This document shows positions 1 through 25,781 of a DNA stretch of 64,000 bases, in pieces. How positions within the stretch are numbered: the first letter of the stretch is position 1; each line of letters begins with the position of its first letter. Position numbers and translations under genes: made by a program. This DNA comes from Marsupella aquatica. Its lineage: Eukaryota; Plantae; Marchantiophyta. The stretch covers positions 1,402,953-1,466,952 of the forward strand of contig OZ316894.1 of NCBI GenBank assembly GCA_973895155.1, written 5' to 3'. The notes beneath the pieces were generated by a model, which was not told where the DNA came from, made no database searches, and worked only from the letters and a program-made list of their open reading frames with translations.

Positions 1-159
1 AGTGGGTAACCAAGGGGTACTCGATATAATTGGACTCTGTTTGAGAGTGAGGAGGGATGAACATGCCCGGTTTGACCTTGCCCGTCAAACTGGGCGTTTT
101 CGAGTGGCAAATTGACAACCCGGCACCCGGGTTCGGAAGCAGTCCGGGAAAGGAAACGT

Positions 160-410
160 CCGGTTCGGGGTTCGGGTTCGGGAGGAGGTTCGGGAGGGGG
201 TTCGGGGTGGGGTCCGGGTGGGGTTCGGGTCCGGGAGGCCGGGGTGGGTCCGGGTGGGGTTCAGGGTTCGGGGTCCGGTTCGGGGTTCGGGGTCCGGTTC
301 GGGGTTGGAAGTTCGAGGTTCGGGATTGAGGCTCGGAGAATTAGGGTTTCGCGATTTAGGGTTGGAGGATGGGGCCGGCCGGGAAAGGGTCGGGGGCTCG
401 GGAGAGGATA
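160..410. repeat. Left subterminal G-rich GGGTTCGG/GGGTCCGG repeats with TTAGGG telo-box-like motifs
   Basis: Visible short-period repeats; low-complexity Gly/Pro ORFs in all frames. Confidence 0.85.
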
Positions 411-604
411 AAAGGAGGAGATCCCTCCTCCCCCTCCTCATTTTTGGTTTTGCAGAAAGGAGGAGGACGAGGAGGAGAGGAGGAGGACGAGGAGGAGAGT
501 AGGAGAAGAGGAGGAGGAGGTAAGTGTTTGGTTTTGGTTTTTATTTTTTATTTTTGGTTTGTTTTTGTTTGTTTGTGTTTTAAACCCTAACCTTAGAGCC
601 AAAT

Positions 605-980
605 GGAGGGATATAAAGAAACACTTGTACGCGCACGCTTTGAGCCTCGGTTCGGTTTGCGATACTCCGTACAAGAATTTCTTAATATCACCTTAAAAAT
701 TTAGTCTCCTTTGTTCATTAAGTAAAACATTTGAGGAGATAGAGGAATCCATGTACGCATGCTTAGAGTTTCGGCTCGGTCTGCGATACTTTGCATGGAT
801 ACCACGATTCGCCGAGAATGTTTTTACTTGAATTACAAATGAGTGTTAAGTTATAGACACCAAATCACATATGTCAAAGCAGGAATATAACAACTTTGAA
901 AGAAAAGAACACTTTTGTGCGCATGCTTTGAGCGTCCGCTCGGTCTGCGATATTTCACAACTGTTGTCTTTCTCTTTTAT
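605..980 (+). other. Three copies of a conserved stem-loop motif inside a putative 5'-UTR intron (GTAAG donor about 520, CAG acceptor 1088) upstream of the kinase
   Basis: Core CGCA-YGCTTW-GAGY-loop-GYTC-GGTY-TGCG-ATAY at about 632, 756 and 920, each enclosed by a different self-complementary outer stem. Confidence 0.7.
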
Positions 981-1179
981 TGTTGTTATATTGAAAGGTA
1001 ATTAAAATCATGTGTGCAATAAAAATACATAATGCATGGGAGAAACAAACCGGGAAAAGATAATAACAATACGACTTGTAATTTTCAGGTTGGTCGTTGA
1101 ATCCTTATTGGAAGGATTTTATTTAAATCCCGGTAAGATCTTGTTCCTCCCTCACATATTCCTTTTGTGAAGGGAAAAC

Positions 1180-2835
1180 ATGGCCATCGAAAATTTTAGT
1201 TTAGAGTATAGGCAAGTGTTGGAGATGATCACAAAACATGTGAATGAGGGATATGAGCCGAATCTTGTTGCTCTGGATGCATTGAAGAACGCTCGAAACA
1301 CTCTCGAACATGCTAGGAATTCTAGCAAAGTGGCCGGGAAACAAAAATGGAAGGGGGCAAACGAAGAGGCAAAACAGGTTCGACACAATGTGGTAGTGTC
1401 GATATGGAAAGAGATACTTTATCGCTACACTCAACCGAAACAGTATGGGGTGGACGGGTTCGAGAGGGAGTTCACAAGACACGGAGAGAAAGGATACAAG
1501 AACTTTCTTGGTGAGATAACCCGTTGTATGCGGGAAAGTGTACAAAAGGAGGACAATTTCACACGAGAGCAAATGAAGTCATTTGAAGATGAAACTGAGA
1601 AACCGGGAGGATTTCTGGAAAATTTGACACTCAACTTGGAGAAGCATGTTTGGGATAATTTGGCAGCCAAAGTGGAAGAGGGTGACACTACATTGCTTGG
1701 AAACCCCGGGATGTACACACACAAGAGAGAATTGCTAGCGAAGTGGAGTAAGGAGTTGGCAATGGCGAAATCTGATAGCAATGTCAAATATGCTAACGAG
1801 ATTGTGCACTTTGGGGATGTCAGCATCAAAAGTGCTCGAAAAGGAACACGTCCATCGCGTGTAGTTCCAGAGGTTAGGAGTATCCATTTTCTTAAACCTG
1901 AGCAGGTGCACAACACACATCGCATTGGGAAAGGAATCCAAGGAGAGGTATACACTTGTCGTATATTACATTGTCCTCTCATTCCCGTCAACGTGACCTT
2001 AGTCGCAAAATGGTTCAAGGATGGAGACAAGCATAAGAGACGAACTGACGCATTACAAGAAGTGCTTATGGGAGGACTGAATCATAAGGGAATAGTTGGA
2101 GCTCTTGCGTTGACTATTGAGGATCCGCCAAAACTTATTTACGATCACTATAATGGAGGTGACTTGGGTAGCTTTATTGATAAGTGCGGCATATCGTCAA
2201 AGAGCAAGGGGAAGGCACAGATCACGACGGACCTTGATTTCAAGTTCATTTCGGAGAAGAAACTCTTGTTGGAGAACCGGTTGGGAATCACCTTGGCTTT
2301 GCTGGAGACACTACAATACTTGCATGAGCATGATCAATTTCATTGTGATCTTCACTTTAGAAACATCCTTCTTCATTTCGATCACGAGCACGATGTGGCT
2401 ATTAAGGTGTATGTTGGTTTATGTGATTTTGGCTTGTCTGAGCATAAATCACAGTGCAAATTACCAGCTAATCGGATGTGGCCCACAGCAACAGAAAAAG
2501 CAGCAGCATACCAAAAACAATTTCCACAGTTGGCTCCGGAGCTTGTTCAACCTACCCCTGTCGAGTTTAGTGAAAGTACCGATATATATGCTTTGGGGAA
2601 TATTTTTGAGACATTGTTGACAGAGAATTGGGATGGAATGTCTAAGGGTTCACGGTTTTTGGGGAGGGGTTGGAGTGCACAAGTGCATGGCCCCAAATTG
2701 GATGTCATAATCCGTGAAATGATGGCCACGGATGCCAAGAAAAGAATGGATTGTGCTTTTTGGAGTTTGAAGATAGTTCGAACGTTTCCAGATTGCACAT
2801 TGCATTTGCACAACAGTCCATATCTTAGAGATTAG
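1180..2835 (+). CDS. Intronless protein kinase (551 aa; about 240-aa helical N-terminus plus kinase domain), transposon cargo
   Basis: IGKGIQGEVY glycine loop, VAK lysine, HCDLHFRNIL catalytic loop, DFG, APE and DIYALG are all present in an open ORF. Confidence 0.9.
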   Translation: MAIENFSLEYRQVLEMITKHVNEGYEPNLVALDALKNARNTLEHARNSSKVAGKQKWKGANEEAKQVRHNVVVSIWKEILYRYTQPKQYGVDGFEREFTRHGEKGYKNFLGEITRCMRESVQKEDNFTREQMKSFEDETEKPGGFLENLTLNLEKHVWDNLAAKVEEGDTTLLGNPGMYTHKRELLAKWSKELAMAKSDSNVKYANEIVHFGDVSIKSARKGTRPSRVVPEVRSIHFLKPEQVHNTHRIGKGIQGEVYTCRILHCPLIPVNVTLVAKWFKDGDKHKRRTDALQEVLMGGLNHKGIVGALALTIEDPPKLIYDHYNGGDLGSFIDKCGISSKSKGKAQITTDLDFKFISEKKLLLENRLGITLALLETLQYLHEHDQFHCDLHFRNILLHFDHEHDVAIKVYVGLCDFGLSEHKSQCKLPANRMWPTATEKAAAYQKQFPQLAPELVQPTPVEFSESTDIYALGNIFETLLTENWDGMSKGSRFLGRGWSAQVHGPKLDVIIREMMATDAKKRMDCAFWSLKIVRTFPDCTLHLHNSPYLRD

Positions 2836-3022
2836 AGATTAGGGTTTACACAATTTTGTAAAGGTCACCTTAACGATTATATGTTTATTCATTGTATGTC
2901 AATTACAATGTTCTGCATTTTGTTGATAATATTCTATCAAACTTTGTCGTGAATGCCCAAAATTGTGCTAAATGTGTTTGTACATTGTCAAATATCGCAA
3001 ACCTTTTGTACACATCGCAAAC

Positions 3023-4981
3023 ATGGGACGATGGGAATTGTCTTCTGATGATGAAGACAAAGAGTTCACGACACAACATCTTACCATGCAAGATGGTCAA
3101 GGATCCTATTGTGACGATGAAGCTCTTCGTAATAATGTGTTGGATAATCTTACAACCATTGGCATTCACTATGAGGCTAAACCCAAGGTTGATGGAACAC
3201 CGGTGCCAAACACAAGAACATGGGAAGATGAGGGTATGAAGGATGAATGGAGTATATTAACGCCCAATGTAAATCCTCCCCATGACGAATGGGCAATGAA
3301 TGCAAAGGAATTGGAGATGTTGATGCCAAAGAAAGACTTTTGGCCATTAGCACAACAAGTTTTTCACGATCCGGATCTTTGGGCAACAAGATCATGGGCG
3401 CAAAAAAAAATCACCATGTCCAAAGTAACACATGCAGGTGTTAAATCACATTGGCAGCAACGATACCGAGAGTTTGCTCCACACAAAGCCCAAATGAAAA
3501 TGAGTTCCGTTTACCCTCCTTTTATCCGATGTCTGATTGCTGAATTCATTCTCAAGTGGAAGGTGGATTACCGTTGGGAAAACAGTGCTGGCAAGCTGAC
3601 TCATCAGGTGCATCCATCAGTGGTTGTGATTGCAACGAATAGGAATACAACTATTGCAAAGGACCCTTCAATGGAGACTTCCAACAAGGGATCCAAAAGA
3701 AAGCTAGATGACACTGGGGAGGGATATGCGCATGAGAAGGGGAAAGCGGCTGTACTTCCTTGAGTCTCCATGCCTGACCGTGTAGCACCACCAACCAATG
3801 TGGAGTCAATGCACACCAAAAAACCAATCCTTATAGGTGTTGGGAGTAGAACTCCACATGCAAAGAACAACAATGTTGCTGATGCTAACAAGGATAAGTT
3901 CAACCTGCACAACATATGCAAGAGCTTGGGGGCAGATGTTGCAGAGGTGATTGAGATAAATCTCCGCACGAAGTATGTAGTGGAGCTGTGTGAATGTGGC
4001 AGTATCGAAAAGTTCAAGTCACAATTGCAACAAGCTGATATAAAGATGAGATCACTTGAGAAGAAGCAGAACGAGCTGACGACCAATTGTGAAGTGATGT
4101 TGTACAAGTGTCAATTGTTTGACAAGATGGAAGAAATCAATAAGCGGATAAAACAACTTGCTGAAAAAGAACGTCAATGCAATGAACTGGCACGACTTGA
4201 GGAGAAGGACAAGATCATTAATGATCTTAAAAGTGAACTTGCAACGCAAGCAATCATCATATCAAATCTTCACGAAGAGGTGCAAGAATTTAACAATGGT
4301 GCTTTGGGGATGAGGTCAAACAAAGGGCAAGGTGAATTATCGTCGCCAAATTTTGTTAACATGCAAATCATAGATCTTACAGGGCACAGCAACCTTTTTC
4401 CAGATGTGGAGGTTGACGCAGAAGGTATTGATAGGTTTTTTGATAAGTGGAAAAAGGATGAAACTATGGCAGCATTTGTTCGTGAAAAGGACGACAAGTG
4501 TACTTGGTGCCTATATCCTTGGGGCCCTGAATCTGTTTCCATGTTGGGAACCTGAGGTCATATATGGCATCATGCTTGCTTGTCTAAATGGTTGAAGAAA
4601 AGCCGAAAATGTTGGTGTCGCACACCATTTCATGAACGCGAGTATGAGCAACGAGGATTGTTGAAGCAAATGCCATCAATGGAGACTCAACAAAATACTA
4701 AAGATATGACTGAAGATATGACTGAAGATACTATACCGGCGATGCAAATAGATGAAACTCCCATTGAACATTTCACAATCAATGAATATAATTTGTCAGA
4801 TGGGGAATTTGACAGGTTGTTATTCAGTGGTCGACTCGATGAGTGGAAACAATATGTGGCAGCCAACCAGCCATCAATAGATGAGCAAAATTTGCAACGA
4901 TCCATTCGGCGCCATCGACGACGTCAACAACAGGCAGAGGTGAAAACAGAAGCTGTTGACAATAACAACAAAAGGAACTAA
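3023..4981 (+). pseudogene. Coiled-coil plus RING-H2-like protein (about 650 aa) interrupted by two in-frame TGA codons (3761-3763, 4553-4555)
   Basis: ORFs 2972-3763, 3770-4555 and 4580-4981 share one frame. Read-through gives CTWC-x12-GT*GHIWHHACL-x8-CWCR, preceded by a heptad-like K/E/L-rich segment. Confidence 0.7.
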
Positions 4982-5497
4982 AACCAATAGTCTCTACATT
5001 TTGATGTTATTTTCATGTAGTTACTATTAGAGACATTTTGTTAAAATAGAAGCGGCATATCCTCTTTGACAATTATTTTCAACTTGTAATTGGTAAAGAG
5101 ATTTTGCGGGAGATTTTGGAGTGACATTACATTGCATATCTCGTTGAGTACATATATTTTTCATTGGGGGCATGGCGTCGCCTTTTGGAGAATGTGTATT
5201 TTTGTAAGAATATTCCATCGTCCAATCAGCCATAGGTTTTGGAAGCATATTGTCGGGCTCACAATCATATTTTTGGACAAGTATGAGGAAAATAGACGTG
5301 ATGAGAGACGGTAGCACAGTGGACTCAGGTACTGATCCTTCTCTGAAATCATTTCCAAAAGGAGATCGTGTAGCACAATGAGTTCAACAAAGTCAACATC
5401 GCAATGGTTTTAGCCGCCCAAGTTGAGAATGATTTTGTAGAAGGATGTATACCTAAGTCCACTCACTTTTCCTGTCTTTCATAATTTTTTCCGCTAT

Positions 5498-6825
5498 TGC
5501 TGCTACGGCCAATGACATTGATGCACATGCGAACCGAGGCCAACGCCTACTCCTTTGCCCACCGCAAAAATGGGCCCTCATTACAACTTGAAGTTGAACG
5601 GAGTTTATTTGAGTACGAGAGAAGTTCTAAAAGCAAATGCACTCTCAGGTCAAATTTTCAGGTCCTTCGAGCAAAAAATTACTGAGTATGTCATCGATCC
5701 GTTGGTTTCACAACTTCTCTCGTACTCAAATAAACTCTGTTCAACTTCAAGTAGCGTAGCTGCTACGGCCAATGACATTCATGCGCATGCAAACCGAGGC
5801 CAACGCCTCTACATTTGCCTACCCCAAAAATGGGCCCTGATTAGAACTTGAAGTTGAACAGAGTTTTTTTCATTGTGAGAAGGTTTATTCAAGCAATGGC
5901 ACTCTCAGGTCAAAATTTCAGGTCCTCCTGACTTTGTTATTATTGAATATGTCCGTGCTCTGTTGCTTGAATAAATCTTCTGATAATGAAATGAACTGAC
6001 CAATTACTGGAGTATGGCTGCTACAGCCTATGACATTAATTCGCACAATTGCATGTTTATATCCTCTCCTTTCCGAATTCCAATTCGAGCTTGGACATCC
6101 TCTCGTCAGCTGGTCTCCACTATTGCAGCTGCTCTTCACGCAAACCGAGATAGCAGTCTCTAGAATCCTTGAACCTATTTTATTTCAATGCATCATTCAT
6201 AGTGTTTGAGGAATCCAGAGGTTCGCGTGAGGAGCAACTGAAAGGGTGGAGACCTGCTGACGAGAGGGTGTCCAAGCTCGAATTGGAATTCGGACAAGAG
6301 AGGATATAAACGGGTGAACTTTGACTTGAAATTGGTGACTGTATTTTGCGTCTGCATATCAATTCGGTGACCGATCTTGCGGAATCCCCGTGACCCTGTC
6401 TGATCATCATCATGACATTGCTCTCCTTGGCCACCAATGGGCCCTCATTACAACTTCAAGTTGAACAGGGTTTATATGATTATGAGAAGGTTATTGATTA
6501 TGTAGGCGATGTGTTCATTTCACAACTTCTCTCATAGTCATATAAACTCTGCCCAACTTCAAGTAGTGCAGCTGCTACGGTCAACGATATTCACCCACCC
6601 CAAAAATGGGCCCTCGTTACAACTTCAAGTTCAACTAAGTTTATTTTATTACGAGAAGGTTTATTCAAGCAATGACATTCTCAGGTCCAATAATGAGGTC
6701 CTCTCGACCTCATTATTATTGAATATGACGGTGCTCGATTGCTGGACTAAATCTTCGCATAGTGAAATGAACTAACCAATTAATGGAGGGGGCTGGTATG
6801 GACTACGGCTGCTATGGCCAACAAC
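5498..6825. repeat. Internal about 260-bp repeat array with three fold-back hairpins (5586-5752, 6055-6311, 6453-6564)
   Basis: GCTGCTACGGCCAATGACATT-like unit starts near 5499, 5759, 6017, 6571 and 6808. Inverted arms read directly. Confidence 0.85.
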
Positions 6826-7060
6826 AAGGTACTTTGAAATAGTCAGTGTTGGAGATTTGGAAAACATGTTGCGTTGGTGTGTCTCTATGACATTCTCAAA
6901 TGCAAATACAAATAAATTATTCAATCATTGTACAATAATAAACACACTGCAAGACAATACAATCATGTTACAAAAAATATAATTGTTTATAATTTTGTCT
7001 ATGTCAGATACGACAATATAAGAGTAGCAACACTTGATATTATTCTAATGAAAAGATGCT

Positions 7061-9967
7061 TCAAGGCTGTGAAGAGAAATTTCGTGCATTGTTGTTACAA
7101 TTTTTGCACAAAAGCGCATTCCACTCGTCTTGTTTATCGCCCCAACTGAGTGGATCACGATTGTGTGACTGAACATTGTGCGACGTTTCTTGAAATGATG
7201 ATATTCCTCGAAACCCACCAAGGCCAATAGGCCTGTTCGACGTATATGGATTCATGACACTTGGCCCTGCATACACATTCAAGGGTGGACCTGCATGGTG
7301 TTGCCAGTTTGCATGTGGGTCGTTTGAAGTTTGACCTTCATGATTGTTGTATCCATGAAAAAAGGTTGATGTCCTTCCATCCGTCGGATGCCCTACTGTG
7401 CCTATGCGTTGCTCGTTGAAATATGGTCTGCTTGTGTCAACATCATTCGCAAAGTTCGACCAAGGTGACCTTGGTTGGGAAGGCATCACAAAGTTTGTGT
7501 CCAGTGATGCATCTTCCTCGTCTTGGATTTGCGATTCATCAATTGTAGGATACATCTCCAAATCCATTTCATTCTCCCATTCCTCTGCATCAGTGATGTC
7601 TGTATCTGGTGGAATACGAGTCAAGAACTCACTATCCTTATCCAGTGAAAATCCGTGTAGCAATTCATCAGCATCATCAATTGTATCATAATCTTCGACA
7701 TCTTCTTCACCAAGAGCCGCACGTGTTGCATCGTACTCTTCATTGCTGCACAACTCCATGGAGATAGGTCTAGGTCCATCATTTGTTCTTCTTCTTTGGT
7801 CATAACGTTCATATATAAACGTATGCGGGTTTTGAACATTTGTGAGCCCTTTCTCTACCCTCATGTTTGTAAATACAAACACCAAATCTTTTGCTCGATC
7901 ATTTGTCAATCGATTGCGACTTTTGGAATGTATAAATCCATACGAACTCCAGTTTTGCTCGCAAGCTGATGCGCACACTTTTTGGTGTAAGATTCTTCGC
8001 GCCAGGATTCTCAAATGTTTATAATCTGCACCATACGCATGCCACCACTCTGCTGGACTGACATTACCTATACTTGATTGGGCGGCTCCCATCGCTATTG
8101 ATGTGTTGGGATTTTTTTTTAGGGCGTCAATGGCTTGACTGTGGATGGCAGAAATAAGTTCTCTGACGTCGCGATCATGGTTGATCCCCTCCTTCACCTG
8201 TTGTTCTGAATATCTAGCAATGTATTTACTGAAACCCCTGTAGAGTTCTGGATCTCCAGCGACATCTATGTCCTCATCAAAAAACATTTGGGGATTGAGA
8301 TATGCTGCCGCTAGCATGAAATCAGTGGTAAGAGATTTTATTCGATCCAAATACACTTTTAGTATCTTTGGTTTCAATACCTCTGTTACCAATGGACAAT
8401 CCTCCATGCTTGCTTTCAAAACATCAATCCCTCTTTTCAAACTCCAATACAACCAACCTGATTGCGGAGAATCACCATCAAATTCTCGCAACATCTTGAC
8501 CAACGGAGTAAAGAATTTAATTGTATCCTTCACTTCAACCCAAAATGTATCTTGCTGTATCCACATTTTAAGTTCGTCTGCCTTTCCCCTCGTCATGTGT
8601 CCAGCTGATTTTGGTCGCAATGGAAGTCTATCACGATAAGACTGCCAATTATCATCAATGACCATCTGTTGTAAAGCTCCTCTTAGCTCCAACGCTCTTT
8701 GTGCCATTAGGAAATTGATCGCAAATCTAGTTGCATTCGGATTCAACAGTTTTTTGTCAGGAGATTTTCTTGCAAATATTGCAGAAAGCTTTTGCGATGA
8801 TGAAACTGCTTTTACTATCCACCTCAACCGTTTAAAAATCTTTTGGAATGGATTCTGTCCAACATCATCTAACACTACACGCTTGTGACCACACATATCC
8901 TCTAGCAGCAAATTAAACACGTGGGCAGCACACCAGCTCCAAGTGACATGAGGATACTTTTTCATGACTACCTCACAACCTGCTACGTGATTTGCGGGTG
9001 CTCCATCGGTTACGATTTGAATAATATGATCTGCACCAATATCCTCAATGTATTTCAACCACATGTCGCCAAGATATTTCCCATCTTTCTTGTCAGCTTG
9101 CGTAGCATTCCAACTATCCAAGAAGCAGTCACCTTTAGAAGTCAACAACATGACATTCATCAAAGGTTCTCTTTGGACGTTTTCCCATCCATCTGAAGAA
9201 AGAGAATACCCATAAGGTTTTGCCTCCTTTAAAGTTTGCGTCATGTCCTTTGTGAGATCCTCCTTACTGTCTTCCAATAATTTCAATCGCAAACTTCGCA
9301 TCGTAGGTAGAGAATAACCATTGACAATCCCTTTTGAAGTCTCTATGATTGCTTCTCGAAAAAAAGGATTATTTGAAACATTGAATGGAATACCACTGGT
9401 GTAGAAAGCTTTCGCCCAAAGCTTATCCAAATTTGTTCTATTTGGAATTTGATAGGCATCCATAATTGGGTTAGGAAGATTTACTGGCCTATCTCCTTCC
9501 CTTACATGTGTATCATCCATGTCAACATAGTTTGACCCTCGTGTGGATGCTTGCGAATATGAACTTCCAACGCTTGGCCTACGACCTCTCACATCCCGCA
9601 AGATATGACTTCCATCCCGTCGTTTGTACTTTAAGGTCGGTGGAACCTTTATCACATTGTACATAATGTTGATGGCATCCAAATCGACGACACCATAGAG
9701 TTGCATGCAAGGGGGCGCATCCCCTTTTTGGATGTTTCCCATCAAATGCGCCTTTGCTCGTGTTGCATGATGAGTAACGTATGTTAAACAATACTTGCAT
9801 CTTCGATAGATACGATTGACATCATGACATGTTGAAGGCGCATCACATCGTTCAAAATATCTCCACACTGGAGATTGTTTTGAAGGGTGTTCTTGCACAC
9901 GAGTTGGACCAGGCCTGGGAGTAGTGGAATGATATCCAGTTTCATGCGAATCCTCTTCATCGGACAT
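7061..9967 (-). CDS. hAT transposase (968 aa from MSDEED): BED zinc finger, DUF659/RNase H-like core, hATC dimerization domain
   Basis: VWRYF..CKYC..AKAHL, SSDGW, QIVTDGA, WCAAHVFNL, NATRF, EWWHAYG, SASACE-like CASACEQNWS and RNRL motifs; uninterrupted ORF. Confidence 0.95.
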   Translation of the reverse strand: MSDEEDSHETGYHSTTPRPGPTRVQEHPSKQSPVWRYFERCDAPSTCHDVNRIYRRCKYCLTYVTHHATRAKAHLMGNIQKGDAPPCMQLYGVVDLDAINIMYNVIKVPPTLKYKRRDGSHILRDVRGRRPSVGSSYSQASTRGSNYVDMDDTHVREGDRPVNLPNPIMDAYQIPNRTNLDKLWAKAFYTSGIPFNVSNNPFFREAIIETSKGIVNGYSLPTMRSLRLKLLEDSKEDLTKDMTQTLKEAKPYGYSLSSDGWENVQREPLMNVMLLTSKGDCFLDSWNATQADKKDGKYLGDMWLKYIEDIGADHIIQIVTDGAPANHVAGCEVVMKKYPHVTWSWCAAHVFNLLLEDMCGHKRVVLDDVGQNPFQKIFKRLRWIVKAVSSSQKLSAIFARKSPDKKLLNPNATRFAINFLMAQRALELRGALQQMVIDDNWQSYRDRLPLRPKSAGHMTRGKADELKMWIQQDTFWVEVKDTIKFFTPLVKMLREFDGDSPQSGWLYWSLKRGIDVLKASMEDCPLVTEVLKPKILKVYLDRIKSLTTDFMLAAAYLNPQMFFDEDIDVAGDPELYRGFSKYIARYSEQQVKEGINHDRDVRELISAIHSQAIDALKKNPNTSIAMGAAQSSIGNVSPAEWWHAYGADYKHLRILARRILHQKVCASACEQNWSSYGFIHSKSRNRLTNDRAKDLVFVFTNMRVEKGLTNVQNPHTFIYERYDQRRRTNDGPRPISMELCSNEEYDATRAALGEEDVEDYDTIDDADELLHGFSLDKDSEFLTRIPPDTDITDAEEWENEMDLEMYPTIDESQIQDEEDASLDTNFVMPSQPRSPWSNFANDVDTSRPYFNEQRIGTVGHPTDGRTSTFFHGYNNHEGQTSNDPHANWQHHAGPPLNVYAGPSVMNPYTSNRPIGLGGFRGISSFQETSHNVQSHNRDPLSWGDKQDEWNALLCKNCNNNARNFSSQP

Positions 9968-10042
9968 TGTTACGACTCTCAATGGTAAAAAAATAAAAGG
10001 GTTGATTCTTTTGATTTTGTGAATATAACAAATATAGTACAA

Positions 10043-10398
10043 TGGGTTACTTTCCTGAATTATCGCAGACTGGGCCTAAGCTCAAAGCATGCGCAGGAAA
10101 GTTTCCCAAATTCTTATATTTGTCAACATCCCTACTTCAACCTATGTTATGTAATATCTATAACTTCACAATAGTTTATCTTTGAAGTGAACATATGTAC
10201 GAGAAATCGTGATACCCATACGAAATATCATAGACCGAGCCAAAGCTCTAAGCATATGCACATGGGTATCTCTTTACTCGCAAGTAGTTCACTTTCAAAC
10301 AAAACAATGATGCAAAGTTGTTAAGGCGATATAAGGAACTTCTCGTACGAATTATCGCAGACCGAGCCGAGCTCAAAGCATGCGCGTACAAGAGTTCC
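10043..10398 (-). other. Three copies of the same stem-loop motif, inverted, upstream of the transposase
   Basis: Plus-strand TATCGCAGAC..GAGC..GCTCAAAGCATGCG-like cores at about 10061, 10226 and 10353, each with a self-complementary flank. Confidence 0.7.
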
Positions 10399-10543
10399 AA
10401 TGTATCCCTCCGATCTCTCCCTAATGCTAAACCACAAGAGAGAGAAACACAATGAGACTTTGGATTAGTGAAATGAATTAGTTATTCCTACTTATACTAA
10501 ATCATCTACTTCTTATCCTCTCTTAAAACTCTTAATCTTCGAT

Positions 10544-11100
10544 CCTAACCCTAATCGCGCCTCCCTTAACCCTAATCTCGCTCCCCTAACCCTAATCCCG
10601 CCCCTAACTCTTCCCCGGCCGCCAGTTCCCGAGCCCCGTCCCCGAACCCCGCACCCCGTTCCCCGAACCCCGCACCCCGTTCCCCGAACCCCGTTCCCCG
10701 CATCCCCGAACCCCCTACCCGAACCCCCTTCCCCGAACCCCCTACCTCGTTCCCCGAACCCCGTTCCCCGAATCCCCGAATCCCGGCCCCCCTTTCCCGC
10801 CCCCCCTTCCCCGGTTCCCCGAATGCCCCCCGTCCCCGGTTCCCCGAATCCCGTCCCCCGGGCCCCCTTTACCCCGGCCGGCCCCGGAAGGGTCCGGGCA
10901 GGGTTCGGGTGGGGGTCCGGGGAGGGTCCAGGAAAGGCCCGAGAGTCCGGGGAGTGTTCGGGGGAGGGTCCGGGGAGGGTCCGGGAAGGGCCCGGGAGTC
11001 CGGGTTCGGGTCAGGGGGAGTTCGGGTTCAGGTCCGGGGTGCTCGGGAGGAGTTCGCGAAAGGTCCGGGGAAGTCGGGGTTCGTTCGGGAGAATCTTCAG
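10544..11100. repeat. Right subterminal region: AACCCTAA telo-box-like motifs, C-rich CCCCGAACC repeats, then G-rich repeats
   Basis: Visible; mirror image of the left end, with a C-rich to G-rich switch at about 10880. Confidence 0.85.
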
Positions 11101-14095
11101 GAATATCCGTCAAATTGCGTGTTTTCGGGCCGTCATTTGACGATTTGACGTGCCCGACAAGGCGTCAAGGTGCCCGTCAGATTAAACCGGGTGAACATGG
11201 GAGCATTTAGAACAGGTATTGGGGGTACTAGTGGTATGAAATAAATGTATTTTTGCCATTGAAACCGAGCATCACGAGGGTTAGAGAGGGTCCTGAGGCT
11301 GCACAGTAGCTGAGTAGGGAGAAAGCAGATTGGTTCAGTGCTCTTGTGACCCACTGAAAAGCTTAGCTGTAATACTGTAAAGATACTTCCCTCTTATCTC
11401 GGTAGTGACTCCCATAGCTTTACTGTTCTACTGTTGTATCCAAAATACTCCACTGTACACAGTTCTCTCGATTTGTTTCTCCAATCTGAGCATGATTGAT
11501 CGATGGGTTCTGTGCAATTTCATCCGTGCATGTGTCGGACTGTATTTCCCATTACTTGTCAGAAGACATCGACTGCATCCGTTGCTTAGGATTTGCGCAC
11601 TGTTGCTGGGAAGACTGATGCTCCACATAGCACTTATCTCGTAGAGCATGGTACAAAATCACTGAGCCGCCCATGCACCGGTCACCAATAATTGAGCCGC
11701 CGTGTCCACGAGTCCATGTAAGCGCTCCTCCACATTGTAGGTGGAGCAGTGGAACGAATTTGGTCGTGCCTCTTCACCTCTGATTCTGGTAGTTTGAGAT
11801 TCTGGAAGCCTGCTAATTCAGCTGACATGATAACATATTAACGAATTCTCCTTGAACGCATAATTCATCTGTATTGGGTCCTCCATGAATTTGAGCCTAA
11901 GTACACTTAAAAGCTTGAGTGGATTTGCCCTCCATCCTGTTAGAACTGTTAGAGAACCTCAAATCCCCTTCAAAGCGCAATTACTTTGACGAGCTGACTT
12001 TCCTGGTGGACAGGAGAATCCACTCTTGCAGATAGCACCTCAAGCGACTGTACGTCACTACCATCATGAAAAATGTGAGGCCGATATTGGCTTTTTGTGT
12101 CCAATAATTGGCCCTGCCCACTCTCCTTCTCCCCTTCATGAAGAAACGGGGGGAAACTTATTTTTATAACAATGGAAACGAATGAAATGTCATAGAGTCC
12201 CCAAAAGGACAAAAAATACAGCGCAGACACCGAAATGACGAACAGGTAGCCACGTCGCCCGGACCGAGTCAGCATATCTAAATTGAAAAGCAGAACTGCA
12301 GAAGTCACATTCCGGAATGAAAATTAAAAGTTACGTTAGACCTTGATGACAGGAATGTCAGTCAAGCAACAAAAACTGCAACTAATAATATTATAATGTC
12401 GCCGAGACCAAAATGGAGTGCACAGCTGCACATGCGTCACAATACCTGAAAATCAGAACCTCGATCTGTGTAAGCATAGCTTGTGCCTACGGTATAAAAT
12501 TGCTGGCAAGATGAGAGTACCATCTGATTTGTTCATCGAGGAGCTGTAGAGCTCCATTGCATTAAAAGCATTTACTACTCAGAGTAGCTGGCTCAACCAG
12601 GCACTGTTCGATGTTCAGGGTTCCCAGGTCATTCCGTCATTGACATAGTCTAAGCAGGCTGGCGACAGTCCGCACCAGCATCAAAGGCCCTCCTACTTGA
12701 TTCCATCATGAGCGGACGGATCAAATGAAATAATACTGATTATAATTCCACTTAATGCATCGAACGGGTTAAAGGAACAACAATAACTCTTTATAGAGCA
12801 GACGGAACAAGAAGGCCCACGACTCGAGGGACCCGCCAAAACCAGTGCCACCTGAAAGAGCGCCCTACCACACAACTTTGACAACACATGGTGCACCTAC
12901 CCAGCACCGCCAGAAGAAACAGCTAATAGAGGATCCCGGGAGACGTCCACAAAGGTCCAAAGAATCGACTCATCGAGCTATTCCAACAAATATGGCATTT
13001 GATTTAACTGCATGATTAGAGCCAACCACAGGCTCTGTATGGAAAGTGTCGAGCTCATGCCATCAATATGACAACCGATTTCACTTATTAGAGCCATCCG
13101 TCATTCCGTAGGCTCTCTAGGGAAAAGTTAGCCTAGTACGAGTCTAGACTTCACCCGGCGGGCACGCCAATCAGTCAGCAAATGCAATTATACAACAGCT
13201 GTGAAAAAGGCGTCGCTTCATTTCCTCGATGGTGCTACATTGCTTGAATTCGCAGCTGCCCTCCTCCAAAGGTGAAGGGTGGGTTGCCTGGGCACGGCCC
13301 GGCTGCTCGATGTCAATCTCCCCCGTCCACGGAAACTTACTCCAAATCGTACCTGAGCTCAGCTGAATGGGCCGCCACCTTCGTGGACAATTATGCACGA
13401 GGCACTCAGTGCGTGTAAAGTATCCTCTCATTCTTCACTGAGTGACCACCACCATACCCTCGACGCTAAGTCATCCAGGGTAGTTTTGAAGGGTTTTCGC
13501 CAAGGTGGCTAATGTCACCCTTATTCGGAACGAGAAGATGCTAAGAATCTTCCTCGCGTAATTCTTGGGTGCTGTTAGATCTCCCAGAATGTTAGGGTAA
13601 CCGTCAGATTCAAGCTAATGGGTTTTGTGGTTAGGTTGTAAACTGGCTAATTTTCGACAAAAGTGGTTCAGAAGACTTTTCAGCGAGGTGAAATTTGGCC
13701 AATTTTCCCCTTAAAAAGAACACTTCTCACTCGTTTTTGCCAGCCCAGCCTACAAGTCGATCGGCCAGCTAGGCTAACAAGTAGACAAGAGGGCATAGAT
13801 TGACTGCAATCTTCTTCAGCGTCAAGTGTCAGAAGGTTTTCAATTTGCACAGGCTTTAGAAGATTGCCGCCCACGCAGTGAGTGGAGACAGCTGAAATTG
13901 TCTTCAGTATTGCTATTGCACCCAAGGTAGTAGCAGCTGAATCTGAATCCGTTCTACGTACAGCTCGTGTGCTTGGTTGACAGGTTAGGGCAGTGACAAC
14001 TTCACGTCTCCCAAATCTTCGAGCTTGAGGTGGACAGGACATAACAACAAGTGCTTCTCTTCTATTCGTGAATCCGGAGGTGATCGCATTTTACA

Positions 14096-16038
14096 ATGGC
14101 CCAGCGGCGGGCACTACTCGTGCTTTGCCTCAGCGCACTTCTGGTCACTTGTCAAGCGGGTTTCTTCGATCTATTTCAAGTATCCTGGGGCGGTCAAAAC
14201 ATACATCCCAATGACACTGCCAACTCTGTGGAAATCGCCCTCACGGCTGACGGAATAGGTTGGTTAGCATACACGTCATTGGCATGTTTTAGATTCTATT
14301 GAGAATTGCTTGAATGTACTGCTAGCAAGTTTAGTTGCTCTTTTTGTGAGATCCGAATTCGGTGGGTAATGGATATATGAGAGTTGATCAGTACTGGTTG
14401 TCACGACGAAATGGTAGAAAATGCTCGATCATGCAGCTGTTGTAGATACCTTGACGACCACGGTTATTGGGAGCTCATTCCGGTCACGTCCACTTCAACC
14501 TTCTTGCTTACTTCTCGGCTTTGTCTCGCAGGATCTACATTCCAGACGAACAACACCTATCTGTTTGGCGACTACAGCGCGGAAATAAAACTCGTACCGG
14601 GGGATTCTGCCGGTACCGTATCAGCTTTCTTCGTAAGTATTGGTCACACATTGTGCGCCAACAGCACAGCACAGCACAGAAGCTAGCCACCCAGCTCGTC
14701 ATCTTCGAGATTCCATCTGACGTCATGTTACATAGCTATCGACTAGACCTTCTTTGTCCGATTCGTCAATTTTTGTTATTAGAGTGTTGGTAGGAATCAA
14801 AACGGGTGGACTTGATACATTATTGTGAAGCTTTGCCGTCCTTGGCATTTCGGTGTCGCCTGAAGTCTACGCAGAGTTTTGCTGAATAAAGCTTTCTACT
14901 CGTATTTGTTGCAGCTCATTTCGAACGGAGACGCTCATGACGAAATAGACTTCGAGTTCCTTGGCAATTTGTCTGGCCAGCCATACCTGTTGCACACAAA
15001 CATATTCGCCAATGGCACGGGCGCACGAGAGCAGGAAATCTACCTTTGGTTCGACCCCACTACCGACTTCCACACATACCGAATCGTTTGGAACCATCAG
15101 CTCGTAATGTAAGTGCCTTCGTCTGACATTATGCCCTTCTTCTGGGAGCTGAAGTTTACAAGTTATTAATGTGACGCAGTCCTATGCTGTAGTTTGTTTC
15201 ATTATTGTCCGGCAGGTTTTAGACCCGAGAGACGCCCAATGCTTTCATTTGGGCTGAAATCCCAAAACAGTAAATCATGAATGCTAATAAATCGACGTCC
15301 GTCATTTTATTGTTGTATCATTTGGAGCCGCATGACTTAGTCAAATTAGTTCTACATTGCCGCGTGCACAAGTTGCTTGTCCTTCGGGAGCTCCCCGGTG
15401 GATTCCACTCGGGTATTTCGATGTATTGTAGACGATTGTGTAGTTCTCTGCCGACGAAACCGACAGTGATTAATCGTCCATCTTTCTCGTACAAGTTGTT
15501 CTCCGCAAGCTGCCTTCCTTGGATTCCACTCAGTGGTCAGCCGATTAGCTGGTCTTCAGAGATTTCGATGTGCGGGTCGGAGATGGATTGTCTGACTACA
15601 AAACTGACAGTGAATCGTCCACCTTTCTTGTGCAGATGGTTTGTGGATGACATTGTCATCCGCGTGTATCACAACATGGACACTGTCCTCCCTCTTTCAT
15701 TTCCCAATTCCAGGCCTATGGTGGTCTCCGGCTGCATATTCGAGGCCAGTCAATGGGCAACGGAGGGTGGGGCAGTTCCCATCAACTATGCCGATGCACC
15801 ATTCAATGTGAACTTCCGGAATTTCACCTTCAACGCGTGCATTGCGACTAGCGACAATGGCGCCTCCTGCTTGACGAATTATGCTGGCAATTCGTGGGAG
15901 CTACCCCCTTACACCAATGTCAGCTCCAATTGGGAGACTCAGTTGGCCTGGGTTCGTAAAAACTACCTCCATTACGATTATTGTTCGGATACTTCTAGAT
16001 CCCCCACGCCTCCGATGGAGTGCCAGAACAACCTTTAG
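14096..16038 (+). CDS. XTH: Xyloglucan endotransglucosylase/hydrolase (GH16); exons 14096-14258, 14532-14632, 14915-15108, 15636-16038
   Basis: Signal peptide, [10 protein letters not shown] catalytic motif, WATEGG and C-terminal YDYC..R..PMEC. GT-AG introns give the typical 101-bp and 194-bp internal exons. Confidence 0.93.
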
Positions 16039-18520: not shown

Positions 18521-20021
18521 AGTGAACAATGAAAAGTACAGTCAATTTTTATGACAAGTTCTATTACACAAAGCTACTAGGATCTGTGCACTTATTAATT
18601 CAATGTGCCTTATTAATGACACTCAATTCAATAAAAAAACCACACTCTTAGGTTTGAAAGCCATGAGGGGAACTTAATACACTATGTGTTCATGTTATTT
18701 AGAATCATTTCTCTCACTCATGATAAACTTAAAACTTTGTTCAAGTGGTAGAATTTAAAGACATTGATTTCACACACATAAAATCTAAGAGATAGCAAAG
18801 TTAAAAAACTAAAAGGGTTGCCAAAATAAGTTCAAATACTCTACGATACCAAAAATTAATTAAAAATCTATCTGATACAAAGTAGAGTTGTAAAAAGATC
18901 AACATTTTCTCTAAATTACCTGATTGAAACTAAGGCATTTAAAAAATTAAGGGGGTTAGAAGAAATTACTAGATTTGAAATAATACAAAACAAATGCCTA
19001 GACTAGGTCAAATGCATATAAAAATACATGACAAGGAACATGAATAAGACAAGACAACCAATAGGTGTTCCCCCATATAGCAGCCTCAAACTCGACTGGA
19101 AAGGTGGATTCACCATATATAGCACCTTTAAAACTAATCACAATCAGTTGAACCCACGATCCCTCAGTCTCCACTCAAGTGAGCTACCACATAGGCATGT
19201 CTCTCTGGGCTTGACACACCAAAATAATATCCCAAACAAGGTTTGTGGTTAAAATGGGTTAAAGGATGCGGGGGCTTCCTCTGGGTCTTGCTTACCAAAT
19301 CCTGGTCTCTTGTAGTATGTTTACTGTTCTGATAGAAATCCGTACTCCAAGAGAAGGATAAAGGGCAAAGCATGTTAGTGGGTGTGTTACTGCAGAGAAG
19401 TGTAAATTTTAGGGGGCGTAATCTTGGGCGTTACCTTAGTGTGTTCTTCAATATCCTGAAATAATTTTTTAAAAAAATTTAGAAAGAAAACATTCTATAA
19501 ATATTCAAAATTTGAGTTATATGACCTATTTAATTTTCTTTTTGTTAAGAAATACCAGTGAATCTACTCTTGTGTTGTATCTACTTTATATTACTTACTA
19601 CACTGAATAAAGTTTTTGGTATTAAAGATATCCGTAAAGTGCATCCTGACTTTCGTCCAAGAATTAGGCTAACTCAGGCTTAGACCTGCTAATTTTTCAT
19701 TAGTTGTAAAGTAGGTCCTGCTTTGTAAAGCTTGATGAGTTACTGTAAATCAACCTGAGTTAATTCTGGCACACGATAGATCCATCATGCTTGTACTCAG
19801 CAGCTCTGCCTTGGCCTCGACATCGCACAACAATGTGCAGCTCTACCCTTGGCCTGGACATCGCAACAACAGCAGCCTCTGCCCTTGGCCTGGACATCGC
19901 AACAAATTGATCAGCGCCAAATTGATATGCGCCCTCGCCACTACGTGCGTCCTCCAGTCCTTCATCTACTCTTTGACGATGGCCACAAGAAGCCGGTGAG
20001 CTCTCCGTTTTTTCTTCAACT

Positions 20022-21268
20022 ATGGATCTCCGAGCAGTGCGCCTACCAATGGAGATGCAGATGCCAGGGAGAATTGATATGCAACAAGTCCTTCCTCCAT
20101 TTGCGCACGACGACGAGAATGAAGATTTCTGGAGAGGAGAGAATGATTGCCAAGATGATGGAGATACCTTGATGCTGTTGTTGCTTGCAATGGCTATGCA
20201 GGCTTATCTCATAATGCTCGAAACATTCCAGCCAATTGAGCTTGCTCGGGAGAATCAAGTGACTGTGAACCCAAGAAGGCCAGTAGATGACCTGCTCTCT
20301 AAACACTCTCAAACTCCACAATTGTTCAAGGACCTCACAAATTTCACTCTCGAAGAATTTGCAGAGCTTTGTGCAATCGTTTGTCCCACCATAGAACAGA
20401 ATGCTAGGTCTACTGGATTATCTCATAAACTAAAAGGTCACCCTAGCAAATTGACTCTAGAACAGAGATTGCTTAGCTACGTCTTTTACATGAAGCATGA
20501 CAACACAATTTATTTTGATGCTGCTCATTGGAATTGGGCAAGATCATCAGTATGTGATGATGCCATTTTTGTAGCTTCTTGTGTAAATCAAGCCTTGGCC
20601 AATGAGATCCGATGGCCTACTGCCGATGAGAGATTGGAGTTGGGGAATGTCATCACCAACTTTCCTGGATGCATAGGATTTGTTGATGGCACCTTATGCA
20701 AAATTTGCAGGCCCTTTGACGACCCCTATCACAATAAATGGTATCAGGGGCGGAAAAAGATGTATTGCTTTAATTCCACAGTGCTAGTAGATCATAATGG
20801 ACTTTTTATCTATGTTGACCCTAGCTATCCTGGTAGTTTCCATGATGTCACAATTCTGAAGGATTCTTGGGTGGACAAGAATTGGAGAACCCTGTTTGCA
20901 AATCAGGATGACTACTATGAGTATTTGCTTGGCGATCAGGGATACACCAGATGAAGAATTATGTCATGAGAGGTTTCAGGAAGGTGGAAATCCGAGCTAT
21001 GGAATTGGACGAAAGCCTAGTGAAGATCTTCAACAAGATGCACTCAGGATACAGAGTCAAGGTGGAGTGGGGAATTGGTGGTATGAAACAGAAATGGAGG
21101 CGGTTGCAGAAAAGATTTGATCTTGTGAGACCTAAGTTTGCCATCACATTTAGGGCAGCTGCATTGCTCACCAATTTCCTGCATAGGCGAAGGAGGAACA
21201 TGCGAGTAGAAATAATTGGTCCTAGGGTCAGAAGAGAAGAGAACAGGGGATGGGCTGGCGACTTTTGA
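20022..21268 (+). pseudogene. Harbinger (HARBI1-like) DDE transposase with a frameshift at about 20950
   Basis: FPGCIGFVDGT, YPGSFHD and LLGDQGY in one frame; RVKVEWGIGGMKQKWRRL in the next frame. Confidence 0.88.
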
Positions 21269-21796
21269 AAACCATGGAAGTCCATGAGAGAGCTCTTGGG
21301 CTCAACATTTTATGTACAGCCTGCACTGTCATATGCACAGTTCAGATAAGATTGATGATGTTATCAAATTGAAAGCATGTATGTAAAGTTGTGTCTGTTT
21401 TTAGGGGATATATGCATGACTCTTCATGAATAAAATTATCAGTTGCCTTTCAAATGGTTGAGTATTGATTTTTTGCAAATATGTGGATTCATTGCTCTAG
21501 TTCCAAAAACTACAGTCAAAAAATTTGCCTTTATGATGAAATTGAAGACCTTGGAAGACATGACAACACACGGAAGCTCAAATGCATAGATGTGTTTTAT
21601 ATTCACTCATGAATCATTTGTATTACATGCAATAAAATTGCTCACAAAATGCAGTTTACTTCATCAAAATTGGCCAAGTACATAGACCTTGACATAGAGT
21701 ACAAAATTGGTCGAACAACTGATGTTTGAAGTGAACTACTGATATTGGCAGAAGTGGTCAAGTACATGATCACTCTTGCCACCTCAAAAACTATAA

Positions 21797-24400: not shown

Positions 24401-24462
24401 CTCTCATAAATATCTTTTATCTTTGACACTAGCCTCAAGTTTCCCCAGTATGGTCGCCAACA

Positions 24463-25781
24463 TGTCTGGGGGGGAAAAATGCGGTTCTTGAGGAAGCACC
24501 GGGCCTATGGCTGCTAGTGTCAAGAGAGAACTTAAGTTAAGATCATAATTACTATTCTAGACTGGGTAGCAGACACCACAAGGAATGGTTATGTGGATGA
24601 AAGCAAAACATCATAACCTTTTTCTCCATACCTAAGGACTATTGCCTCCTTGGTAGCTACCTTGGGTCGAGTTACAAAATAAATATCTCCCAACGAGAAA
24701 GAAACGGAGGTTCATCGGAGGGAGGTTTGTTGAGATCTATCTCAATACAAGATAAAAATTGTGCAAGCCCAATTCTGCCCATAAACTACATAAGGATATA
24801 CAATGGCTTTATTGAATTTAACACCGCAGTTGCAAATGCTTCTCCAAAGTGAAAAGTCATATGCTGACGCATTATCTCTTTTTGGAATACATGAATTCTA
24901 ATAAGGAAAGGATTAGAGAGAGGAACAACAGGTACTGGTCTGGGCATTATTGTACTATCAAATATCCCATCCAACTAATATTCATTCTAATGATAAGATA
25001 TAGAATCATTCAACGAAAAGATCATTCATTTCAAACAAATACTATGCATTGAGTTAACTCTAAGTATATACATGCAGATGTTTATCTTAATAAGTTTATC
25101 TTCTTTTGAATGAAAACACCAGCTGAAGGTCCAACCCATACAAATTACCACTGACTGAGCTAAGCTCCAAGCCAGCGTGTATGCGTGGGTCTACTTCATA
25201 AGGGTTTCATCCAAAAGGAGCATATGATATTAAGGTATTGTTGAGCACTTTGCAACTCTTTAGGACTTAATAACCATCTCCTATAAAATGATAACACTTT
25301 TTGAAGGTCCAACTCATACAAAATATCTCTGGCCGAGCCGAAGCTCTAAGCAAGCGTGTATGAGTGGGTCTACTTCATAAGGGTTATATTCATAGAAGAA
25401 GTCATCAAGTCCAATGGATTCTTAAGGCTTCACAACTTAGTTGATGAAAGATGGGGAGTGAGGGGAGAGAGCCCCTCTCCTCTTTATTTATAGTGCTCAC
25501 ACGTCAAGCACACGGATCAAGCATGGCACACGGATGGAAGCCATGTGTCACATATCCAAGGCAAGTAAGTGTGCTAGTACTGTAGTTACGTGAGTAGAGC
25601 AACTGTAGCCAGTACACTGTAGCATGCACACTGTAGATCGTACACTGTAGCATGCACACTGTAGGTCGTGCACTGTAGCATGCATACTATAGACTGCATA
25701 TAATGCGAGAATTCAAACTACTATCCTATACTACTAAGCTATACTTAGGAGGAACTTACTAAACAAAGAATCCCCACGACA
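24463..25781 (-). mobile_element. 5' LTR (about 1.32 kb) of the gypsy element, with adjacent PBS at about 24443-24459
   Basis: Minus strand begins TGTCGTGGGG and ends CCCCCAGACA, followed by TGGCGACCATACTGGGG. TATAAATA at about 25485-25492. Internal CACTGTAG microrepeats at 25600-25700. Confidence 0.75.

Follow-up and report, generated by a model that had tools for sequence, protein, structure and literature searches.

DNA transposons with accessory genes are already known, hAT7 and VANDAL among them. In maize, the two units of MuDR converge from mirrored ends, a layout also seen in the element described here. VANDAL elements carrying VANC are also multi-gene DNA transposons with repeated cis motifs (PMC13547354). 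They differ from the present element in that VANDAL and MuDR encode a Mutator transposase; the motif of the present element covaries as RNA. No similarity between VANC and the cargo of the present element was found.

The fungal hAT7 family shows that a hAT can carry an intact accessory enzyme gene (TET/JBP), and in IS3EU, also fungal, an alpha-kinase gene lies opposite to the transposase (PMC12730594). In contrast to the element described here, hAT7 has dioxygenase cargo and a 7-bp target-site duplication (TSD), the alpha-kinase is not of the ePK type, and the consulted part of that report describes neither a RING gene nor a leader RNA motif (PMC12730594). Besides, accessory genes pass between transposon superfamilies (PMC12730594). 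The histone-H3 hAT of Pseudocercospora fijiensis, with about 9.5 kb, a DUF659 transposase, an 8-bp TSD and captured coding sequence, has a similar build, but its cargo is RIP-inactivated (PMC6710886); that of the present element has open frames in most copies and shows purifying selection. A preliminary description of the locus had stated that classical hATs (Ac, Tam3, hobo) encode only the transposase; for hATs in general this is too strong in view of TET/JBP hAT7 (PMC12730594) and the 9.5-kb histone-H3 DUF659 hATs (PMC6710886).

Two further systems show other traits of the locus. Red-algal Plavaka elements share a three-gene accessory cassette (PAG1-3) common to several TE families, with adjacent inverted-repeat arrays, but the transposase is of the EnSpm type and the methylase/SET/oxygenase cargo has a direct chromatin link (10.1101/2025.02.11.637652). 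The rice CACTA element with miR820 contains a microRNA-precursor-like hairpin within a DNA transposon, one there (PMC3459959) as against five predicted hairpins here. Counter-silencing by transposons is known in very few cases (VANC and miR820), and for the TET cargo it is only proposed. No description of a bryophyte kinase/RING hAT, of the kinase/RING/stem-loop combination, of DUF6729 or of the leader stem-loop was found in the papers searched, and Repbase, subscription journals and supplements may hold such families; the cis RNA structure is apparently undescribed.

Structure and copies of the element

The window (the whole stretch of 64,000 nucleotides from the liverwort Marsupella aquatica) contains a hAT DNA transposon of about 11.1 kb belonging to the DUF659 type (Table 1). 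Traits of hAT membership are an 8-bp TSD at both flanks, short terminal inverted repeats (TIRs) and subterminal repeats; typical hAT termini begin with CAG or TAG, and those found here begin with CCCGG. Judging by their sequence, the GTTCGGG/GTCCGGG units of the left array are likely transposase-binding sites. The transposase matches DUF659 (PF04937, E 4e-30) and Dimer_Tnp_hAT (PF05699, E 1e-9) in Pfam, and residues D259, D321, C346xxH349 and E670, which we take to be the DDE triad and the CxxH of hAT transposases, are kept in two relatives. The element is not a classical single-gene hAT such as Ac, Tam3 or hobo, since a kinase gene and a RING gene lie within its termini.

Table 1. Features of the element and related sequences (positions in the window)
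Feature	Position	Strand	Remark
Left TSD, TGAACATG	58..65	.	
Left TIR, CCCGGTTT	66..73	+	8 bp, perfect
Left subterminal GC-rich array	142..324	+	GTTCGGG/GTCCGGG units
Promoter-like region, left	342..519	+	inferred; telo-boxes at 342 and 357, TATA-like near 406, AGG repeat
Predicted leader intron, GTAAGT ... TTTTCAG	520..1088	+	sequence signals
Leader stem-loop L1	610..690	+	
Leader stem-loop L2	734..814	+	
Leader stem-loop L3	898..978	+	
Kinase gene, 551 aa	1180..2835	+	helical N-terminal domain, non-RD protein kinase
RING gene, 652 codons	3023..4981	+	broken here; N-terminal domain, coiled coil, RING-H2-like finger (4499-4618)
Long hairpin H1	5575..5762	+	paralogue of H2, H4, H5
Long hairpin H2	5835..6012	+	
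Long hairpin H3	6045..6320	.	92-nt arms, 89% complementary
Long hairpin H4	6442..6575	+	
Long hairpin H5	6611..6788	+	
hAT transposase gene, 968 aa	7061..9967	-	open frame; BED-like finger, DUF659, dimerisation domain
Leader stem-loop R3	10035..10115	-	
Leader stem-loop R2	10200..10280	-	
Leader stem-loop R1	10327..10406	-	
Promoter-like region, transposase unit	10510..10602	-	inferred; three telo-boxes, TATA-like element
Right subterminal GC-rich arrays	10634..11089	.	both orientations
Right TIR	11184..11191	-	edge backed by 10 loose-ended X1 contigs at 11191
Right TSD, TGAACATG	11192..11199	.	
Two further leader stem-loops outside the element (25298-25378, 25120-25199)	25120..25378	-	LTR-like 5' region of a presumed Ty3/gypsy-like remnant

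Much of the preliminary description is borne out: the intact transposase frame, the kinase frame and the mirrored leaders (605-957 and 10056-10411, with 72% identity at E 1e-44) are all present. Its perfect TSD (TGAACATG) and inverted ends (CCCGGTTT) were also found, the perfection of the TIRs being limited to 8 bp. The cargo, reported as intronless, has coding frames without introns, but the leaders likely hold one, as suggested by splice-site-like sequence; the predicted left intron would take out 11 upstream ATGs. The cargo had been described as AT-rich, but its A+T content does not exceed that of the transposase (GC 0.44, 0.42, 0.42). The cargo does not seem to be a nested element with its own termini, since AAACCGGG occurs internally at 1047 and 1600 but with no visible partner or TSD, and there is no step in depth.

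In sequencing run X1, contigs across the kinase gene, RING gene, hairpins and transposase reach 8-11 times the flank depth (183-243 in 6 of the 7 listed element-internal contigs, against 22 in the flank contig), a summed contig depth that is not a true copy number, and at the right end (11191) ten contigs exit into dissimilar flanks (agreement 0.44). Contigs bridge the left leader and the kinase gene, the kinase and RING genes (X1 and X4), the hairpins and the transposase, and the transposase and the right leader, none of them covering a whole second copy. X1 shows 0 differences from the window flank over 1827 bases and may be the window's own source. Depth and right-end contigs indicate several copies, not the single copy that would have counted against the preliminary reading, and the family is likely young, with about ten copies. 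Given the raised depth across the cargo and the ten right-end contigs, the cargo is likely mobile with the element.

Kinase and RING genes

All the catalytic motifs of the kinase are present (G-loop 250-255, K277, E294, D390, N395, DFG 416-418 and APE 452-454), so that an active ePK-type enzyme is predicted. The predicted model has a pLDDT of 81.6 and matches the kinase fold with Z 22; its fold is TKL/RLK-like and not that of a HipA-type toxin. Receptor-like and IRAK-type kinases tie as the best structural matches, with Z 22 and about 240 residues superposed at an rmsd of about 3 A, and the matches among viral structures, at 13-19% identity, are to generic kinases. Three pairs with distant relatives gave omega values of 0.14, 0.20 and 0.125 (LRT 127-162 against omega 1), well under the value near 1 that would have spoken against the preliminary reading. 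In these pairs dS is near saturation (1.7-3.0), and some of the selection signal may be older than the capture. For the N-terminal part, the comparison with L002 gave an omega of 0.57. Among 1.84 billion representatives no close conventional host parent of the kinase was found, matches outside its family dropping to E 3e-23 or weaker and covering the kinase domain only, and an Atlas search returned generic kinase clusters only.

The RING gene, previously reported as a coiled-coil/RING-H2 frame, does occupy that frame but is not intact: two TGA codons that had passed unseen, at 3761-3763 and 4553-4555, interrupt it, and the second replaces the third zinc-ligand Cys. RING-H2 E3 ligases have C3H2C3 zinc ligands; the last ligand pair of the present finger is C-x-C. 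Its intact relatives, including one of 632 aa with 57% identity, match zf-RING_2 at the cut-off (E 2e-6 to 6e-6) and RNF165/Arkadia with E 3e-5; the model of the protein has a pLDDT of 41, too low for structural use. Nearly all the other copies sampled in the sequencing runs are free of the stops: position 3761 is C in 200/223 of the depth in X1, and position 4555 is C or T in 666/686 (X1), 9653/9685 (X4) and 15633/15694 (X5), so that other copies encode Arg and Cys at these sites. Variants of the RING region among copies (the best-supported 40 of 110, in rows that are not independent) are synonymous in 19 of the 38 listed, against 8.7 expected (P 0.00015), which answers the proposed dN/dS check with a synonymous excess. 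Of the 11 listed differences of the present copy, 9 are amino-acid changing or nonsense. The gene would have been lost in this copy after insertion, which would then depend on sister copies in trans. Nothing found here ties either cargo protein to chromatin.

Relatives of both genes were found in the liverwort Calypogeia fissa, where the kinase family has many copies, often fragments (8 gene models on contigs of 7 different lengths), as expected for transposon cargo. In addition, a 5.8-kb contig (L001) contains a kinase of 46% identity that is preceded by the same stem-loops and followed by a DUF6729 gene in place of the RING gene. By tblastn, L001 matched neither the RING protein nor the hAT transposase, and its downstream ORF had no transposase match in Pfam or PDB; we take it, by its motifs, to be another transposon, the contig being without the termini. 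A viral scan with this ORF gave 0/2, and kinase-profile scans gave 0/116 candidate stretches in viral contigs, 0/61 in genome contigs and 3/211 in metagenomes. One metagenome match (L003) was dropped as a relative, being an unrelated bacterial kinase with 22% identity.

Leader stem-loops and central hairpins

Each mirrored leader contains three copies of a covarying, strand-specific predicted RNA stem-loop, a feature new to this analysis. Ten copies with 48-88% identity show two-sided changes in 12 of 19 pairs, a result equalled in 0/500 shuffles, the tested structure having been derived from the very sequences tested; the alignment holds 30 G-U cells against 1 A-C. The core has 52 nt, with natural compensatory changes. 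No Rfam family matched at the gathering score (weak opposite-strand miRNA matches had E about 0.35), and a search of viral and prokaryote collections with the stem-loop pattern gave 0 matches. Two copies lie outside the element, in a remnant without the kinase; it has no Pfam match, and from its sequence features we take it to be Ty3/gypsy-like.

The hairpin block of the preliminary description consists of five long hairpins between 5575 and 6788 (plus-strand z -5.5 to -18.5). Compared with plant MIRNA precursors, they have an MFEI of 0.84-1.35, with all Rfam matches far under the gathering score. Covariation is weak, the RNAalifold consensus of 4 sequences having two-sided changes in 7 of 38 pairs; equally weak is the preference for the own arm, which is best in H1 and H4 and does not stand out in H2 and H5. 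Searches with hairpin 21-mers gave nothing clear as a target within the window, and no match to the kinase mRNA was found.

Possible roles of the module

It is highly probable that the cargo is integral to the element and selected. This agrees with the integral module, as opposed to a recent Pack capture, that had been proposed from the sequence: there are several copies, the dN/dS of the cargo is well below 1 and no nested termini were found. As far as sequence can tell, the intact transposase, the full-length selected cargo and the lack of a close host parent also separate the element from Pack-TEs (Pack-hAT, Pack-MULE). A passive Pack-type capture, in which functionless pieces of host genes are carried along, could account for the broken RING gene of the present copy, and amplification of captured genes that have been inactivated, such as histone H3, is on record for hATs (PMC6710886). 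Against it are the full-length ORFs, the low omega of the kinase (0.12-0.20), the synonymous excess among RING copies, the absence of the stops from most other copies and of any close host gene among the representatives searched, which leave it largely refuted and the least probable reading.

What the module does is less certain. On balance we lean towards kinase gene, RING gene, hairpins and stem-loops forming a built-in accessory module that favours expression and spread of the element, and self-activation or counter-silencing is, by a slight preference, the predicted job of the cargo. Both ends would act as promoters, with two units transcribed inward; stem-loops of the nascent leaders would be bound by a protein, host transcription or silencing factors would be modified by the kinase and the candidate RING E3 ligase, and the central hairpins would be cut into small RNAs against host genes, for which a TE-borne microRNA against DRM2 is a precedent. 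A bolder version, tentative and rather doubtful as a whole, is a Tat/TAR-like portable switch common to liverwort transposons: the 5' RNA stem-loop would recruit the element-encoded kinase, with the RING ligase and the microRNA-like hairpins as helpers, and transcription would be pushed past silencing. Such a module would have moved between hAT and DUF6729 DNA transposons, the Ty3/gypsy retroelement carrying the RNA site alone and exploiting the kinase in trans.

The same parts could instead restrain the element, the kinase phosphorylating the transposase, the RING ligase degrading it and hairpin small RNAs hitting the element, so that the haploid host is spared. All genes lie within one element, the convergent units end at the hairpin block, and H5 has two weak sites with scores of 4.0, one at 6905, shortly beyond the end of the transposase, and one at 10460; but no hairpin 21-mer does better than this score on the element, and hits elsewhere in the window are at least as good. 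Besides, a transposase-specific kinase substrate is unlikely because the related kinase adjoins the unrelated DUF6729 gene, and self-restraint is altogether unlikely. A toxin-antidote or spore-killer drive, akin to the transposon-borne msft-1/tlpr-1 type, would have the kinase poison element-free spores or cells, with either the RING ligase or RNAs from the hairpins as its antidote. It would suit two enzymes in tandem, and in a life cycle dominated by the haploid phase a killer would be exposed. Nematodes offer precedents, with a toxin-antidote pair in a MULE transposon and Maverick-borne kinases (10.1101/2022.07.12.499685). However, about ten scattered copies would place the antidote in nearly every spore and weaken the drive, the predicted kinase fold is not HipA-type, L001 shows no RING match downstream of its kinase and the kinase mRNA has no match to the hairpins, so that drive appears distinctly improbable. 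The broken RING gene is not decisive here, given that sister copies could rescue it.

Very unlikely, finally, is a cargo of benefit to the host, as in fungal Starships, by which the transposon would spread signalling or defence genes selected for the plant. The non-RD kinase, its receptor-like and IRAK-type structural matches and the purifying selection on it are in favour of this, but the many fragmentary copies in C. fissa and the quick decay of the present copy, seen in its RING differences, are not, and a leader motif common to the kinase unit, the transposase and a retroelement points to a function at the level of the element.

The interest of the system lies in a family that is likely young and almost intact, with two predicted signalling enzymes under selection and an RNA structure common to unrelated element classes. 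It is testable in Marchantia with one kinase, one candidate ligase and one 52-nt stem-loop core. These results also suggest that transposon genes account for part of the orphan kinase and RING expansions annotated in bryophytes.

Organisation and copies of the element

The element is a genuine member of the hAT superfamily and of the autonomous type. As the preliminary description held, it is bounded by a target-site duplication and inverted repeats that enclose an intact transposase read inward, and GC-rich GTTCGGG/GTCCGGG arrays lie internal to its left and right ends. The catalytic-type residues D259, D321, CxxH and E670 are common to the transposase and two relatives (67% and 57% identity). 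The reading frame is about 170 codons longer (window 7061-7580, minus strand) than these relatives (801 and 807 aa), and the excess could come from read-through or from an intron left unspliced, or could be a tail peculiar to the family. The cargo had been described as AT-rich; in GC content it does not differ from the transposase and lies below the single host gene compared.

Features of the element and of the rest of the window
Feature	Position	Strand	Remarks
Target-site duplication TGAACATG	58-65 and 11192-11199		both flanks of the element
Inverted repeat CCCGGTTT, 8 bp	the element's two termini
Kinase, 551 aa	1180-2835	plus
Coiled-coil/RING frame, 652 codons	3023-4981	plus	TGA at 3761 and 4553
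Five long hairpins, H1-H5	5575-6788
Transposase, 968 aa, open	9967-7061	minus	DUF659 and hAT dimerisation domain
Xyloglucan endotransglucosylase	14500-16038		host gene
PIF/Harbinger-type transposase	19977-21270		DDE_Tnp_4, E 2e-12; stop at 20952
Decayed remnant, presumably Ty3/gypsy-like	22400-25750	minus	PBS-like site near 24450; TATA-like site near 25490
82-bp unit array	28295-28729
Intronless calnexin gene	27965-30855 (region)
Exon, presumably cytochrome-P450-like	37872-38396		presumably host gene
Unrelated kinase, exons	57437-57720		host gene

Logan contigs of four sequencing runs, X1 and X4 among them, were aligned to window 1-13000. In X1, possibly the source of the window itself, six of the seven listed within-element contigs have a depth of 183-243, compared with 22 for the flank contig, and are about 98-99% identical to the element; the seventh is a divergent relative (depth 19). 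Ten X1 contigs reach position 11191 and then continue into dissimilar DNA. The kinase-RING junction is bridged in X1 and in X4, which carries a second organism label, and further contigs bridge leader and kinase, hairpins and transposase, and transposase and right leader. About ten copies are indicated, each with the cargo, a picture joined from bridging contigs none of which is element-long, depth not being a strict copy number. The family is probably young and multi-copy, and the preliminary reading of the cargo as an integral module is supported.

Kinase, RING gene and hairpins

The kinase retains every catalytic motif, and its confident structure model (pLDDT 81.6) resembles TKL/RLK/IRAK-type kinases (Z about 22). 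When 1.84 billion representatives were searched by profile, 19 proteins scored at E of 1e-30 or better, and a close conventional host kinase was not found. Its closest named relatives come from the leafy liverwort Calypogeia fissa, with 78-81% identity across partial proteins. Eight gene models of that species, one full-length (547 aa) and the others short, belong to the family, and the contigs that carry them have seven different lengths. Five proteins (P0050, P0052, P0055, P0058 and P0068), one of them from Riccia fluitans, represent remoter clades of the same odd non-RD type. At residue 394 (window 2359-2361) the catalytic loop reads HCDLHFRN and the nearest relatives have G instead of R, possibly a private change. 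Pairwise codon models gave omega values of 0.14 against the kinase of metagenome contig L001, 0.20 against that of L002 (whose two stop codons were excluded) and 0.125 between these two, with dS near saturation.

L001 (1-5822) carries the kinase, then a DUF6729 ORF (E 2e-11) and then another ORF, which shows D, D, DxxH and E motifs that we take to be transposase-like and has no match in Pfam or PDB. It is likely that an intron-split DUF6729 gene with transposase-like motifs follows the kinase. L001 has no match to the RING gene or the hAT, and the literature search returned nothing on DUF6729.

The coiled-coil/RING-H2 gene of the preliminary description was recovered as a frame which is not open in this copy, the second TGA falling on a zinc ligand. 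Both stops are missing from nearly all other copies covered: in X1, C accounts for 200 of the 223 depth at position 3761, and position 4555 is C or T in 666/686 (X1), 9653/9685 (X4), 15633/15694 (run X5) and the single covering contig of run X7. Of the 11 listed differences within 3023-4981, nine show T in this copy where the others have C, and nine alter the protein; the gene in this copy looks to be decaying through cytosine deamination. Between 4420 and 4760, synonymous variants are in excess (19 of 38 versus 8.7 expected under the same mutation spectrum, P 0.00015), these 38 being the best 40 of 110 by support minus two at the stop, and not independent. Taken with the kinase, selection on the cargo is upheld. 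An intact relative of 632 aa is 57% identical, with a nearly invariant finger, and the nearest named one is a C. fissa gene model (49%). The named relatives of kinase and RING protein together suggest a leafy-liverwort host. A conserved C-terminal helix (DEQNLQRSIRRH, window 4880-4930) is, we presume, loosely ubiquitin-interacting-motif-like. In X5 (organism C), 180 contigs cover these 341 bp (4420-4760) with a summed depth up to 16,571, and the run contains only 0.14 of the element's words; organism C may have a much larger related RING gene family.

The hairpin cluster was also recovered. H1, H2, H4 and H5 are mutual paralogues, H3 is separate, and all five are predicted to fold as microRNA precursors do (MFEI 0.84-1.35). 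Their Rfam matches lie far below threshold, and no good target was found within the element or the window.

The leader RNA stem-loop

Each mirrored leader holds three copies of a stem-loop motif that the preliminary description did not include. It also lies 5' of the 46%-identical L001 kinase (two whole copies and one cut) and twice at 25.1-25.4 kb of the window, in the LTR-like region of the Ty3/gypsy-like remnant, just downstream of the TATA-like site; this remnant has no Pfam match and no second LTR within the window. All ten whole copies are in sense relative to the downstream gene. Folded singly, the ten give a common upper stem-loop (z -1.6 to -4.3), in which a 6-nt 3' bulge separates the lower stem from a middle stem containing one mismatch, and a 2-nt bulge leads on to a stem of 4 bp that is closed by a loop of 3-4 nt. 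With pairwise identity of 48-88%, pairing holds in 94.7% of 189 cells (slid controls 26-46%), with two-sided changes in 12 of 19 pairs; none of 500 shuffles was as high, a figure that is no probability, since the tested structure derives from these same, related sequences. G-U cells outnumber A-C cells by 30 to 1, a strand preference of the kind expected of RNA. The conserved motif has no Rfam match, and a covariance model over 81.6 kb returned exactly the ten sites plus one weak reverse-strand match. It would be an apparently undescribed leader RNA element common to different element classes.

Precedents and possible action of the cargo

Accessory genes aboard transposons are described in several sources: TET/JBP genes in hAT7 elements of fungi and an alpha-kinase in IS3EU elements, genes of a kind that transfers between superfamilies (PMC12730594); a mobile three-gene cassette in Plavaka elements of red algae (10.1101/2025.02.11.637652); an amplified inactivated histone H3 in a 9.5-kb DUF659 hAT (PMC6710886); miR820, within CACTA elements, which targets DRM2 (PMC3459959); and VANC with other accessory proteins (PMC13547354, in whose main text the word 'kinase' is absent). 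A kinase/RING hAT and the stem-loop were unreported in the literature searched, which lay outside Repbase and paywalled papers. To this theme the element adds a kinase and a RING gene under selection, together with a leader RNA motif that is apparently undescribed.

Each end would act as a promoter, with telo-boxes, TATA-like sites and predicted leader introns, and the two would drive two units transcribed inward. Maize MuDR has the same layout of two inward units.

Why a selfish element should retain kinase, ligase and hairpins by selection, and why the kinase also stands beside a different putative transposase, is most simply read, and we lean towards this, as a sign that they would act upon host silencing or transcription machinery that restrains any transposon. 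Bolder still, the kinase might work via the leader stem-loop as a Tat/TAR-like switch, which we hold to be rather unlikely. Restraint of the transposase by its own cargo is doubtful to a similar degree. A toxin-antidote drive, for which one nematode study offers a MULE-borne pair beside Maverick-borne kinases (10.1101/2022.07.12.499685), seems improbable here. Cargo of benefit to the host is very improbable, and passive capture is the least credible reading.

Elsewhere in the window, the cytochrome-P450-like exon has no Pfam match, and the 82-bp unit array lies directly 5' of the calnexin gene.
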